Below, one piece after another: positions 1,923-4,279 of a stretch of DNA of 4,279 nt (the first letter of the stretch is position 1; each line of letters starts with the position of its first letter). Source of the DNA: a virus (Duplodnaviria; Heunggongvirae; Uroviricota; Caudoviricetes); IMG/VR virus record IMGVR_UViG_2778261058_000012. The stretch is one strand, 5' to 3'. The position numbers and the translations under genes are program-made. The notes under the pieces were generated by a model. The model did not search any database and was not told the DNA's origin. It worked only from the letters and a program-made list of their open reading frames with translations.

Positions 1923-2150
1923 TTAAGAATCTACCCTATGAATGGATATGCACTCAACCGAATCGATCTTGGTTTCAATCTTTTTTATCGGGATCAGGCT
2001 TCTTTTTAGGTAACTTCGGGGGCTTAACTTGCTGATGACTTTGCGTTCGGCGCGTAAGCCAGGGATGGTCAGCTTTAGGTTTAACATAGTATTTTGAGCG
2101 TAAATCAATACGGGCATTATCCACTCGTTCATGGACACTCTTTTCATCAT
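1923..2150 (-). CDS. Hypothetical 75-aa ORF, start overlapping the stop of the O-like gene (ATGA); possibly a remnant of the next replication gene
   Basis: Minus-strand ATGATGA at 2150..2144 gives the stop of the upstream gene and the start of this ORF in one 4-nt overlap. No recognisable family; followed by ORF-free DNA. Confidence 0.25.
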   Translation of the reverse strand: MMKRVSMNEWIMPVLIYAQNTMLNLKLTIPGLRAERKVISKLSPRSYLKRSLIPIKKIETKIDSVECISIHRVDS

Positions 2151-2875
2151 CCAGTGGTAGGCTCTTTTGGTCGCATGATCTCGCCATCATCACTGGCTGC
2201 CTGTTCGTAGAGACCCACGATCCGCCCCCAGATCCACTGCGCACACGCCAAATCCTCCCTGCTACCCCACTGGCGTTTTTTCGCACTAAACACAACCGCG
2301 TCGGAGTTCCGGGTTAAAAAATCCTGTTCAGTCGTCTGCGGGTCCGGTTGCGAAGCTTCCGGACGAAAAGTGTTTTTATTCTCTGTAGTAATCTCTGTTG
2401 TATTCTCTGTAAGATCATCAGGCCATTTTGACCCGATGACATTGGGTCGTTTTGAACCAATGGAGCGTTTCATTTTGACCTCTTCCATCGTGTCATTTTG
2501 ACCTGATGGAGCGGCGCATTTTGAACCGATGGATTCGCTCAATTTGCCACCATCTAAAAGCTCGCTCCCATAGTTGATCGTGTAGAAATTGGTCATATCG
2601 CGCTTTGATTTATTGAGCTTTTCACAACGCAAAAGCCCCAGCGTTTTCAGACTTGCAAACGCGCGCTTTAACGTTGACTCTGACCAGAATGGGAACTGTT
2701 CCAGCCATTGTTCCGTTGTGTTATAAATCCAGCGAACACCATCACATTCCATGCCGGAGTTGGTATCTCTCAACCAGTAGTGCAGTTGTTGCAAAACAAT
2801 GGCTTCGTTTAAGCCAATTTTCATTGCCAGCTGCGTGTTTATAACCAGTGGGCGTTCAGCAAAAAGAAGGCTCAT
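2147..2875 (-). CDS. Phage replication initiator, functional analogue of lambda O (iteron-binding origin protein); start assigned to ATG at 2875, alternatives TTG 2929 or ATG 2824
   Basis: Third gene of the dicC-led minus-strand operon, the position of lambda O. The coding sequence contains five direct repeats that translate to repeated IGSK-containing peptides (SESIGSK..RSIGSK..NVIGSK), followed by an AT-rich repeat block, the hallmark of an origin embedded in an O-type gene. The ORF-track start at 2929 is TTG and overlaps the upstream gene by 74 nt; ATG 2875 overlaps by 20 nt. Confidence 0.65.
   Translation of the reverse strand: MSLLFAERPLVINTQLAMKIGLNEAIVLQQLHYWLRDTNSGMECDGVRWIYNTTEQWLEQFPFWSESTLKRAFASLKTLGLLRCEKLNKSKRDMTNFYTINYGSELLDGGKLSESIGSKCAAPSGQNDTMEEVKMKRSIGSKRPNVIGSKWPDDLTENTTEITTENKNTFRPEASQPDPQTTEQDFLTRNSDAVVFSAKKRQWGSREDLACAQWIWGRIVGLYEQAASDDGEIMRPKEPTTG
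2378..2412. repeat. AT-rich block with three tandem 12-bp repeats (TCTCTGT-NGTA-N) flanking the iterons; candidate DNA-unwinding element
   Basis: TCTCTGT at 2380, 2392 and 2404, within TGTTTTTATTCTCTGTAGTAATCTCTGTTGTATTCTCTGTAAGA; encodes the repetitive peptide TENTTEITTENKNT. Iterons followed by an AT-rich tract is the same order as in lambda ori. Confidence 0.45.
2423..2555. repeat. Iteron array (candidate prophage replication origin) inside the O-like gene
   Basis: Direct repeats with core CATTTTGA(C/A)C starting at 2424, 2448, 2471, 2494 and 2517 (period 23-24 bp, about two helical turns), plus a degenerate sixth copy AATTTGCCACCATC at 2541..2554. The fuller consensus CATTTTGA(C/A)C(C/T)GATGG is met by the first, fourth and fifth copies only. 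Confidence 0.65.
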
Positions 2876-3377
2876 AATTCCATCCAGCTTTTTGTTGGTA
2901 TTGCTGTCGATACGCAAGTTTGAAAGCAATTGCTTTTTCTATAAGTTCGTCAGTTTCACGATCCACTACGGCAGGATCAGCAAAAAGCAGTCCGGACTCC
3001 ACCACATCGCCATATTCTTTGTTTAACCCGGCGATCATGCACGTGATGCTTTTTCCGTCAGTAATTTCACGATACAACCTGAAATCATTAATCCGGATAG
3101 CCTCCATAATTGCAGGCACTAGCGCCGTGAACTTTTCACGCTTATCCCTGGTGTCGATAGCCTTCCAGCGTTCAAATATCTTCACTCGATTAACGCCAAG
3201 CGCTCGCTGATCAATCGCGCCACCTTCATATGTGACACGCTGAACATCGATGTTCGGGCGCTCTTTCAAAGCCCAGAATGCTTCAGTGATTAATATCGTC
3301 GCCTGCTCCTGTGTCATTCCTGGTCGACATATCCAGGCATCCAGAGCCTCACGAGCCTGTTCAGGAGTGATTTTCAT
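2856..3377 (-). CDS. YdaT-family protein (CII-position regulator, toxic on overexpression in Rac), 173 aa
   Basis: Second gene of the operon, overlapping the dicC 3' end by 17 nt. Begins MKI and has an internal KREKFTALVPAIMEAI segment resembling the REK..LIPAIL region I recall from Rac YdaT; the family assignment rests on recalled similarity and synteny (cro-like, then ydaT-like, then replication gene). Confidence 0.5.
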   Translation of the reverse strand: MKITPEQAREALDAWICRPGMTQEQATILITEAFWALKERPNIDVQRVTYEGGAIDQRALGVNRVKIFERWKAIDTRDKREKFTALVPAIMEAIRINDFRLYREITDGKSITCMIAGLNKEYGDVVESGLLFADPAVVDRETDELIEKAIAFKLAYRQQYQQKAGWNYEPSFC

Positions 3378-3591
3378 TGTTCAACCGCCCCGCCCGCTTC
3401 GTCTTACGATATTCATCATAAACTTTGGGATCATACTGAAGCTCCCCGCCAGATGCCTCCTGTAGACGCATCGCGCGACCTTCGGGAACTAAATCCCCTT
3501 TCCAGCTATAAAGCGAAGCCAAACGAATACCTGCTGCTTGTGCAAGTTTTGTTTTTGAACCGAAATACAAAAGAGCGTCAGTTTTAAGCAT
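3361..3591 (-). CDS. dicC: DicC, Cro-like transcriptional regulator of the prophage immunity region, 76 aa
   Basis: Translation MLKTDALLYFGSKTKLAQAAGIRLASLYSWKGDLVPEGRAMRLQEASGGELQYDPKVYDEYRKTKRAGRLNNENHS matches E. coli DicC as I recall it; AAGGTG Shine-Dalgarno; divergent from dicA. Confidence 0.9.
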   Translation of the reverse strand: MLKTDALLYFGSKTKLAQAAGIRLASLYSWKGDLVPEGRAMRLQEASGGELQYDPKVYDEYRKTKRAGRLNNENHS

Positions 3592-3674
3592 TTAAAACAC
3601 CTTTATTGTTAGTCATAACTAACAAGATAGATGTTAACAAAAACATAGTCAATACGATTTAGCATTAGCTAACT
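3592..3674. promoter_or_regulatory. Divergent dicC/dicA promoter-operator region
   Basis: 83-bp AT-rich intergenic region with a 20-bp palindrome TTGTTAGT-CATA-ACTAACAA (3606..3625) and a second partial palindrome ATGTT-AACAAAA-ACAT (3631..3646), the type of operator that DicA and DicC would be expected to bind. Confidence 0.6.
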
Positions 3675-4082
3675 ATGGAAACAAAAAATTTAACTATCGG
3701 CGAACGCATCAGGTATCGTCGGAAAAACCTCAAACACACCCAAAGGTCTCTTGCTAAAGCCCTGAAAATCTCCCATGTGTCTGTATCACAATGGGAACGG
3801 GGTGATAGTGAACCTACAGGGAAGAACCTTTTTGCCCTCAGCAAAGTATTGCAATGCTCACCAACATGGATTCTATTTGGCGATGAAGACAAGCAACCAA
3901 CACCACCTGTTGAGAAGCCAGTTGCCTTATCCCCCAAAGAACTAGAGCTCCTTGAGCTGTTTAATGCACTGCCAGAATCAGAACAGGATACCCAGCTCGC
4001 CGAAATGCGAGCTCGAGTAAAAAACTTCAATAAACTCTTTGAAGAATTACTAAAAGCCCGTCAGCGGACAAATAAAAGATAA
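3675..4082 (+). CDS. dicA: DicA, cI/C2-like HTH repressor of the prophage (represses the dicB cell-division-inhibitor operon), 135 aa
   Basis: Translation METKNLTIGERIRYRRKNLKHTQRSLAKALKISHVSVSQWERGDSEPTGKNLFALSKVLQCSPTWILFGDEDK... matches E. coli DicA as I recall it; N-terminal XRE-type HTH. Confidence 0.95.
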   Translation: METKNLTIGERIRYRRKNLKHTQRSLAKALKISHVSVSQWERGDSEPTGKNLFALSKVLQCSPTWILFGDEDKQPTPPVEKPVALSPKELELLELFNALPESEQDTQLAEMRARVKNFNKLFEELLKARQRTNKR

Positions 4083-4116
4083 CATCATCAATGAGTTATC
4101 TTTTACCACATCAATT

Positions 4117-4176
4117 ATGTTAGCTATAGCATACAAAATCACTTGACCGATATGTTAGTCATGGCTAATCTTGTTT
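4117..4176 (+). promoter_or_regulatory. Candidate repressor-controlled promoter for the operon downstream of dicA (dicB-operon promoter position)
   Basis: TTGACC (4143..4148) - 17 nt - TAATCT (4166..4171); the spacer/-10 carries the near-palindrome TTAGTCATGGCTAA (4155..4168), closely related to the 3609..3622 operator, and a second site TGTTAGCTATAGCATACA lies at 4118..4135. Confidence 0.45.
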
Positions 4177-4248
4177 GCATCAACACACCGCACGGTGTTC
4201 TCAGCAAACAGTTCCGCTACCCCAGCGTTAAGGGGAAATGAGGTCAGC

Positions 4249-4279
4249 ATGGATACTATCGATCTTGGCAACAACGAAT
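4249..4279 (+). CDS. ydfA: 5' end of the first gene after dicA (small YdfA-like prophage protein), partial; continues beyond the window
   Basis: GAGGT Shine-Dalgarno (4239..4243) then ATG at 4249, reading MDTIDLGNNE...; position and N-terminus are consistent with my recollection of ydfA following dicA in Qin, but only 10 codons are visible. Confidence 0.4.
   Translation, partial: MDTIDLGNNE

Follow-up and report, generated by a model that had tools for sequence, protein, structure and literature searches.

A probable replication origin embedded in the initiator gene of Qin/mEp460-type lambdoid prophages

We analysed a 4,279-nucleotide stretch of DNA (hereafter the window) from the Caudoviricetes record IMGVR_UViG_2778261058_000012, which represents the end of an Escherichia coli Qin-type lambdoid prophage that carries the immunity and replication genes. 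The segment at 2369-2554 is very probably (we would put it at roughly 85%) the replication origin of this Qin/mEp460-type prophage, embedded in the gene of its own initiator. We favor this reading because the segment consists of repeats that are not explained by chance, because selection on these acts on the DNA, because their position is conserved, because they covary with the initiator, because they fall in the linker between its domains, and because the layout is that of lambda. The origin thus belongs to a known kind of system, while the initiator family is uncharacterised but very common. Two features go beyond lambda: a 12-mer array held under DNA-level constraint across phyla, which is the unexpected part, and a stand-alone initiator with a DnaT-like tail.

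Of 5426 complete E. coli genomes, 1880 contain the origin segment, some in as many as four copies, and the gene around it bears the annotation 'hypothetical protein' in the majority of RefSeq E. coli records among the matches listed. Its recognition supplies a replication module for a common class of lambdoid prophages and shows the extent of the replication module lost from the Qin prophage of E. coli K-12. It also makes several questions testable: how the host helicase is recruited by an initiator without a phage-encoded loader; what reads a 12-mer that stays constant at synonymous sites from Pseudomonas to Bacillus phages; and what effect a silent chromosomal origin, or a truncated initiator still competent for binding, has on superinfecting phages of the same specificity.

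Organization of the repeat array

The segment is characterized by two adjoining sets of direct repeats inside the minus-strand open reading frame (ORF) at 2147-2875. The first comprises six 23-bp units (iterons) at 2416-2554, five of them good and one degenerate; the second, which follows the iterons in the direction of transcription, comprises three 12-bp TACAGAGAnTAC units at 2377-2412. A repeat search placed the five good iterons in register at spacings of 24, 23, 23 and 23 bp, and Tandem Repeats Finder returned one array of 23-bp period at 2450-2533 (score 70) and one of 12-bp period at 2380-2411 (score 50). The iteron core CRTTTTGAMC occurs five times in the window, always between 2424 and 2526, against an expectation of 0.04, and none of 200 shuffled sequences reached five. 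The motif TCTCTGT is found three times in the 12-mer block and four times in the window (0.53 expected), a count of four again being reached by none of 200 shuffles. Both of these sets had been described in the original prediction, as five direct repeats spaced by 23-24 bp plus a degenerate sixth, and as three 12-bp TCTCTGT repeats in an AT-rich tract beyond the iterons; both descriptions are borne out.

All iterons are read here on the minus strand. The degenerate iteron 0 (GATGGTGGCAAATTGAGCGAATC, 2532-2554) keeps the 23-bp register of the other units, and its equivalent in the related phage mEp460_4F5 (locus L003) is a good iteron. Iteron 1 (CATCGGTTCAAAATGCGCCGCTC, 2509-2531) is conserved in its 5' half-site only and iteron 3 (GAAGAGGTCAAAATGAAACGCTC, 2463-2485) in its core only. 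Iteron 2 (CATCAGGTCAAAATGACACGATG, 2486-2508), iteron 4 (CATTGGTTCAAAACGACCCAATG, 2440-2462) and iteron 5 (CATCGGGTCAAAATGGCCTGATG, 2416-2438), the last of which adjoins the 12-mers, are semi-palindromic: the units starting at 2416, 2440 and 2486 are imperfect palindromes with 16 of 23 positions self-complementary and CATCnGG/CCnGATG arms around TCAAAATG, and so display the A-tract-centred dyad of a lambda-type origin.

The 12-mers form a candidate DNA-unwinding element (2377-2412, minus strand) and read TACAGAGAATAC, AACAGAGATTAC and TACAGAGAATAA on the gene strand, the repeat search placing the individual units at 2377-2388, 2389-2400 and 2401-2412. Together with an adjacent T-run they make up a block (2373-2412) of 28% G+C, which is the least stable 40-bp stretch inside the gene, with a nearest-neighbour free energy of -44.3 as against a window mean of -53.2 (standard deviation 3.9). 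Hence, directly downstream of the iterons along transcription lies the easily melted AT-rich tract of a lambda-type origin. Between the last iteron and the first 12-mer the sequence reads GATC (2413-2416), a Dam site. DnaA boxes showed neither an enrichment nor a match to the 12-mers, and no Rfam family was matched in the window.

Conservation of the repeats and covariation with the initiator

Conservation as direct repeats in homologues had been set beforehand as one of the tests by which the original prediction could be refuted. It was found in all 69 distinct homologous genes, which were collected as homologues of the initiator N-domain from phage records and IMG/VR: the best period between the N-domain and the 12-mers is 23 bp in 66 of them and 24 bp in the other 3. 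The spacing is kept while the iteron core differs between branches, reading GGTCAAAATGACC in the Qin/mEp460/Klebsiella branch, GGGCAAATTGCCC in Erwinia PEp14, Pseudomonas AF and many others, and GGGACAAATTGTCC in Hafnia yong2. The core changes along with the DNA-binding domain of the initiator. At residue 67, where the predicted recognition helix begins, Ser is paired with GTCA cores in 14 of 14 genes and Asp with GGCA cores in 34 of 35 classifiable genes, and the Ser/GTCA pairing recurs in enterobacterial phages and in the Bacillus phage TP21-L. As judged from these sequences, iteron specificity covaries with N-domain residue 67.

The homology extends to Gram-positive hosts. The N-domain is 51% identical to its equivalent in the Staphylococcus aureus phage 96, whose gene has GGGACAAAATGGCCC units at a spacing of 22-23 bp. 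More generally, the N-domains of the E. coli prophages and of Gram-positive phages are 46-51% identical (loci L295, 1992-2747, for phage 96 and L296, 1992-2807, for TP21-L), and the iterons of the Gram-positive phages, GGGACAAAATGGCCC in phage 96 and GTGTCAAAATGA at 23 bp in TP21-L, are nearly the same as those of the E. coli prophages. Conservation of this kind, from E. coli prophages to phages of Gram-positive bacteria, is unusually deep for a paired initiator domain and binding site.

The 12-mers are likewise kept in sequence from Pseudomonas to Bacillus phages. When IMG/VR was scanned for exact copies of two neighboring 12-mer units, at least 120 viral loci were recovered (L172-L291). Among the matches listed, the array lies inside an ORF of at least 200 residues in 115 of the 120 loci, and a 23-bp period is present in 90 of the 101 distinct regions upstream of the arrays. 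Single-linkage clustering by blastp of the ORFs upstream, within the same listed matches, places 97 of 120 in one group that includes the N-domain type of the window together with more distant versions of it (69 by direct tblastn), a further 18 in a second family and one in a third. A GATC stands ahead of the 12-mers in 43 of the 120 listed loci, and also in L002, L003, L006, L007, L009 and L011.

Several side observations concern these loci. Initiator genes of the window type are often followed, one to three genes on, by a gene for a DNA adenine methylase, and methylation may be linked to control of the origin. Tandem TACAGAGAnTAC units are also seen after iteron arrays in initiators with other N-domains, such as the 'GNVIPANWW...LLSEIVYWYRP' type, with repeats of 15 or 23 bp. 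At locus L210 an HNH nuclease domain is inserted between the N-domain and the iterons.

Selection on the repeats acts on the DNA

The iterons had initially been noted to generate a repeated IGSK peptide. The product indeed contains this motif three times, contributed by units 1, 4 and 5; units 2 and 3 give SGQN and EVKM instead. The underlying sequence GGTCAAAATG encodes GSK in the three IGSK units, GQN in unit 2 and VKM in unit 3. Since the 23-bp period is not a multiple of three, a single DNA motif is read in all three frames and does not produce a peptide repeat; the repeated IGSK is a by-product of the DNA repeats.

Comparison with the 73%-identical gene of mEp460_4F5 reveals an inversion between the two levels of identity: the iteron segment is 0.64 identical in amino acids and 0.82 in nucleotides, as against 0.79 and 0.73, respectively, for the N-domain. 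At residues that are unchanged between these two genes, third-position identity stands at 0.90 across the iterons and reaches 1.00 across the 12-mers, compared with 0.55 in the N-domain. The same inversion of identities was observed in four more distant comparisons; in that with Hafnia yong2 the third-position identity of the iteron segment, at 0.62, is hardly above the 0.59 of the N-domain.

Codon usage in the 12-mers, counted beyond the anchoring unit, is strongly skewed: Thr is encoded 54 times by ACA/ACT and once by ACC/ACG, as against 133 and 194 times elsewhere in the same genes (p 7e-18), and Glu 29 times by GAG and never by GAA, as against 182 and 164 times elsewhere (p 3e-8). In the middle codon of the 12-mer, AnT, the amino acid varies (N, I, S or T) while the first and third bases are kept, and the base preceding each unit is T, whatever the codon it belongs to. 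In the Bacillus phage TP21-L the CAGAGAnTAC units stand 11 and 10 nt apart, so that the frame changes from one to the next. On account of the 23-bp period, the excess of nucleotide over amino-acid identity, the frozen synonymous sites, the AnT codon and the shifted frames of TP21-L, we conclude from these sequence comparisons that selection on the repeats acts on the DNA and not on the protein.

Domain architecture of the initiator

The full-length initiator (WP_000054512) has 321 amino acids and is found in strains ATCC 8739, W and IAI1, in one record labelled DH5alpha and at locus L001; in the phage records PhiR42_1, HannyBb and mEp460_ev081, where the gene is intact, the product shows 98-99.6% amino-acid identity to that of the window ORF. 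PHROGs is the only resource that names the family, as PHROG 391 'replication initiation O-like' (E 1e-91 for the full-length form); scans with Pfam and NCBIfam detected no domain in the window protein. The designation of the gene as O-like in the original prediction proves apt for the C-terminal half: in BLASTP, residues 146-293 of the full-length protein align with residues 135-270 of lambda O (34% identity, E 1e-26). It does not extend to the N-domain, as neither the window protein nor the full-length protein matches Phage_rep_O (Pfam PF04492), against which lambda O itself scores 5.7e-36. In accord with this, hhalign of an N-domain profile with lambda O gave no N-terminal match and a mere hint of C-domain homology. 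Nor was there a sequence match of the protein to RepA_N (PF06970) at E values up to 1, or any match when the N-domain alignment was used in a profile search of the PDB.

The AlphaFold (AF2) model predicts an N-terminal winged helix over residues 10-101, with elements in the order H-H-E-H-H-E-E; the corresponding N-terminal domain (residues 1-107; 2555-2875, minus strand) is the presumed iteron-binding domain. It is followed by a stretch without predicted structure (residues 108-175; predicted local distance difference test, pLDDT, about 25), a helical domain at residues 180-298 (pLDDT 70-86) and a disordered tail. In a Foldseek search with this modest-confidence model, the top matches of the N-domain were the staphylococcal RepA_N domains 4pql_A and 5kbj, at a weak E of 0.03 and a probability of 1.0, with template modelling (TM) scores of 0.48-0.55 by target length and with DnaD (2v79) at rank 39.

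The iterons correspond to residues 108-154 and the iterons plus 12-mers to codons 108-167, all within the predicted disordered linker at 108-175; the origin therefore lies in the linker between the two folded domains, with six direct-repeat units (at least four being expected of a lambda-type origin) placed between them. The last 21 residues of the full-length protein (VQRCVNHISEPDTEIPPGFRG) match the C-terminus of the host DnaT. Accordingly, sequence and model together depict the initiator as a mosaic, in which a DNA-binding domain of predicted RepA_N/DnaD-like fold is joined to a C-domain of the lambda O type and to a tail resembling that of DnaT. As a separate observation, the full-length initiators of L001 (3259-4224), L003, L006, L009 and L011 all end in a sequence identical or similar to the DnaT C-terminus (SEPDTEIPPGFRG; IPAGFRG/S/N).

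Relationship to known origins

The origin of lambdoid phages has been described as a set of iterons with an AT-rich tract midway along the O gene, and O has been reported to bind single-stranded AT-rich DNA (PMC7466680). As in the window, the origins of lambda and of the Stx phages 933W and P27 lie in the middle of the initiator gene, and lambda-type origins share with it four to six direct repeats, with a dyad around TCAAAAYG and a spacing of 20-24 bp, followed by an AT-rich tract. In the lambda record, the annotated iterons start at 39034, 39054, 39078 and 39101 (spacings 20, 24 and 23 bp) and read ATCCCTCAAAACGAGGGA and variants, with arms around TCAAAAYG and an AT-rich run following along O transcription; window iteron 4 and lambda iteron 1 have one and the same centre, TCAAAACGA. 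The C-domains are homologous, and the gene order of repressor, cro-like, CII-like and initiator genes is common to both. The lambda ori/O layout proposed at the outset, with iterons and then an easily melted block inside the initiator gene, is thus supported by all comparative tests run. There are also differences: Phage_rep_O is the N-domain in lambda only; the iteron arms differ; the AT tract of the window is made of ordered, conserved 12-mers, whereas that of lambda is a purine-rich run; and, unlike lambda, the window type lacks a P-like gene and has a full-length protein with a DnaT-identical tail. Purine skew was considered as a further trait in common with the lambda AT tract and was rejected, the sense strand here being only 59% purine.

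A second set of parallels is with the RepA_N initiators, such as RepA of pSK41/pTZ2162 and RepA of the Vibrio PLE, whose iterons are inverted repeats converging on a poly-A tract (PMC7145576). The window iterons have the same semi-palindromic, poly-A-converging form, and the best fold matches of the N-domain, weak as they are, fall in this family, which also combines a DNA-binding N-domain with a variable, partner-specific C-domain. In contrast, the window protein lacks a Pfam sequence match to the family, the fold evidence is weak, and its C-domain is lambda O-like. Weaver and colleagues are said to have reported in 2009 that many RepA_N plasmids carry the origin inside repA; we know of no 12-mer array reported for these plasmids.

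An origin within the coding sequence of its own initiator has also been reported for the replisome-organiser gene of phage SPP1 and inferred for 80alpha, where a mutant was not complementable in trans (PMC5499656). The proteins (SPP1 G38P, with oriL, and 80alpha ORF20) differ from that of the window, and the comparison covers origin placement; unlike the window type, these phages encode a loader, a helicase or both. Closer Gram-positive relatives of the window N-domain are phage 96 ORF015 and TP21-L gp32. To our knowledge, the origins of these two phages have not been characterised.

Sequence-specific unwinding elements are known in the 13-mers of oriC, the DnaA-trios and the 13-mers of RK2 oriV, which are bound by TrfA. 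These resemble the window 12-mers in being repeats of about a helical turn that adjoin the initiator sites and are conserved in sequence beyond A+T content. The window 12-mers differ from the oriC and RK2 elements in their unrelated sequence and in their location within a coding region.

A possible mechanism and the absence of a helicase loader

By analogy with these systems, dimers of the N-terminal winged helix would bind the semi-palindromic, A-tract-centred iterons and form a bent nucleoprotein complex, which in turn would strain and open the adjacent array of three TACAGAGAnTAC units. One strand of the 12-mers might then be held sequence-specifically, a strand-specific capture that is suggested by the conservation of their sequence. 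The C-terminal domain, with its homology to lambda O and its DnaT-like tail, would bring in the host helicase without a phage-encoded loader, and transcripts started leftward at the dicC promoter would traverse the origin in the manner of lambda pR transcription.

The original prediction had taken the prophage to lack a helicase loader. There is indeed none beside the initiator; as a sign of decay, this does not hold, since the intact, plaque-forming relatives examined (PhiR42_1, mEp460_4F5 and SfII) likewise have no helicase-loader gene beside theirs, and the P-type loader that accompanies the lambda O family is missing immediately downstream. The initiator is followed by a DUF977/Ren-like gene and a methyltransferase gene in PhiR42_1, and by a PerC-like gene and dam in mEp460_4F5 and SfII. 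Absence of the loader is hence a property of the family and not the result of decay. Partners are present in relatives whose C-domains are of other types, namely a primase-helicase in Pseudomonas phage AF and, in phage 96, a loader along with a DnaB-like helicase. No P- or DnaC-like gene was found beside the DnaT-tailed initiators of L001, L003, L006, L009 and L011. Because DnaT-tailed initiators have no such neighbor while the tail-less lambda O is accompanied by P, the pattern suggests that the DnaT-like tail stands in for a phage loader.

A broader proposal, which we offer tentatively and at clearly less than even odds, is that the TACAGAGAnTAC array is a sequence-specific origin-opening or helicase-loading element common to a very large superfamily of phage initiators from Proteobacteria and Firmicutes, with one strand being read by a conserved surface of the winged-helix N-domain or by a universal component of the replisome. 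In the Qin/mEp460 branch, it would act with a stand-alone initiator that has replaced the loader by a tail copied from the host DnaT.

Alternative explanations

The best surviving alternative bears on the role of the 12-mers only and holds that these, rather than being an unwinding element, are bound as double-stranded sites by some host factor or by another protein of the phage. Their sequence, beyond its A+T content, is kept from Pseudomonas to Bacillus phages, which a generic unwinding element would not need; however, the units do not match a DnaA box, and the block is the least stable in the gene and takes the position of the AT-rich tract of lambda. We also know of no host factor common to Firmicutes and Proteobacteria that recognises one and the same 12-mer, and consider this explanation unlikely.

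Less probable still is that the iterons serve regulation or exclusion only, through autoregulation, handcuffing or titration of an incoming initiator, with replication starting elsewhere. Plasmids with part of the lambda replication region are reported to block the plating of phages of the same replication type (PMC3349717), and several independent truncation alleles of the window gene keep the N-domain and the repeats while losing the C-domain. Such a role does not account for an array that always adjoins conserved, easily melted 12-mers inside the initiator gene, as in lambda, nor for the gene-embedded origins reported for SPP1 and inferred for 80alpha (PMC5499656), and the loci examined showed no iteron array besides this one. 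Regulation could nonetheless be exerted in addition to the origin function.

It is highly improbable that the repeats serve the protein, by supplying a flexible linker with a recurring peptide (IGSK, TTEN/TTEI), while the DNA itself would have no role. The threefold IGSK, a TEITTE-like peptide conserved in many homologues and a 12-bp period equal to four codons would all agree with this. Against it, the 23-bp motif falls in three frames and TP21-L retains the DNA motif in shifted ones; identity is higher in nucleotides than in amino acids, with synonymous sites frozen; dyad symmetry of the iterons would be meaningless for a peptide; the AnT codon varies its amino acid and keeps the flanking bases; and the region encoded by the repeats is predicted to be disordered. 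Finally, an origin of the repeats by chance or by recent local duplication without function has in its favor only that short tandem repeats can come from slippage, and can be practically dismissed given that none of 200 shuffles reached the observed counts and that the repeats are conserved alongside diverged sequence in 69 distinct genes and across phyla.

Several points do weigh against the segment being the origin as described. Dyad symmetry is clear in only three of the six iterons, the other three keeping the core or a half-site. With 36-44 bp, the AT-rich block is short, and the window has six intergenic stretches of lower stability. The quality of the AF2 model is modest, at a mean pLDDT of 58, as is the strength of the N-domain fold matches, which at E 0.03 are weak. 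The codon result is somewhat favored by the partial use of the DNA consensus in delimiting the 12-mer block, and neither the codon counts nor the covariation counts take account of shared ancestry. The role assigned to the DnaT-like tail is a guess, a 2026 paper on the preprimosome giving no contacts for the C-terminal tail of DnaT, and, with the gene truncated in the window, any activity here depends on a helper. No publication on this initiator family was found, nor any for the 12-mer strings, the TEITTE peptide or the Qin origin, in literature that was searchable, to the exclusion of older subscription literature.

State of the origin in this prophage

The initiator gene of the window (2147-2875, minus strand) is truncated: it encodes residues 1-239 of 321, followed by Thr-Thr-Gly and a stop. 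Its protein matches the full-length form through Pro239. Comparison by blastn with L001, L002, L004 and L005 locates the deletion joint at 2150-2164, where codons 239/240 are fused to the interior of a remnant of an ISNCY/ISEsa1-like transposase gene (ydfW), derived from an insertion sequence (IS). The lost residues 240-321 contain the best-conserved block in common with lambda O (NWTAWANDVR...SPSKLREKWDEL) and the DnaT-like tail, and only residues 146-239 of the O-like stretch remain. The exact 242-residue truncated product is annotated on the NCBI contig NLNZ01000118.1 of a draft assembly (GCA_002229985.1), the entire length of which is the window, and the same arrangement is present in a 117-kb contig of GCA_002229605.1; the joint is absent from the 5426 complete E. 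coli genomes and was not found in an exact scan of the GTDB species representatives.

The origin had been described as looking intact. This holds for the cis element; the initiator itself is not intact, having 239 of 321 residues, and this matters more for firing than the missing loader. The N-domain of the truncated protein could still bind the iterons, while recruitment of a helicase by it is unlikely. Lacking residues 240-321 of its initiator, the origin should not fire on its own, and in this copy it is probably a silent relic; it could, however, be bound by the truncated protein, or be fired in trans by a related phage of the same iteron specificity.

Truncation is not confined to this allele. 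At least three further truncation alleles of the initiator gene are present in public data (proteins P0001, P0002, P0005 and P0014): after residue 239 with a different continuation, near residue 219 (176 member sequences) and near residue 277 (91 members). All of these keep the N-domain, the iterons and the 12-mers; they could reflect plain decay or selection for a binding-competent fragment.

Genomic context

The window carries relE, relB, flxA, the ydfW remnant, the initiator gene, a YdaT/CII-like gene (2856-3377, minus strand), dicC (3361-3591, minus strand) and dicA (3675-4082, plus strand). The product of 2856-3377 matches Pfam YdaT_toxin (E 4.5e-5) and the PHROG 'CII-like transcriptional activator' (E 5.5e-40), and ydfX of K-12 is an N-terminal fragment of this gene. 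The only sigma-70-like site in 2100-3700 is a promoter-like site upstream of dicC (3624-3652, minus strand), the putative counterpart of lambda pR; leftward transcription from it would cross the CII-like gene, the initiator gene and the origin.

Homology between the window and E. coli K-12 MG1655 covers 46-2164 and 3098-4279, so that 2165-3097, with all of the repeats, has been lost from K-12. Two different deletions thus share one left endpoint: the window joins ydfW to initiator codon 239, and K-12 joins 2164 to 3098, which creates ydfX.

At the other end of the window, 1-57 is the terminal repeat of an IS3-family element, which we take to be IS629/IS1203-like; it interrupts hokD, and the homology to K-12 starts at 46. 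The same terminal sequence recurs in an E. coli-type locus (L159 / L013, IMGVR_UViG_2563366940_000001), where the IS end stands directly after the first 12-mer and splits the origin.

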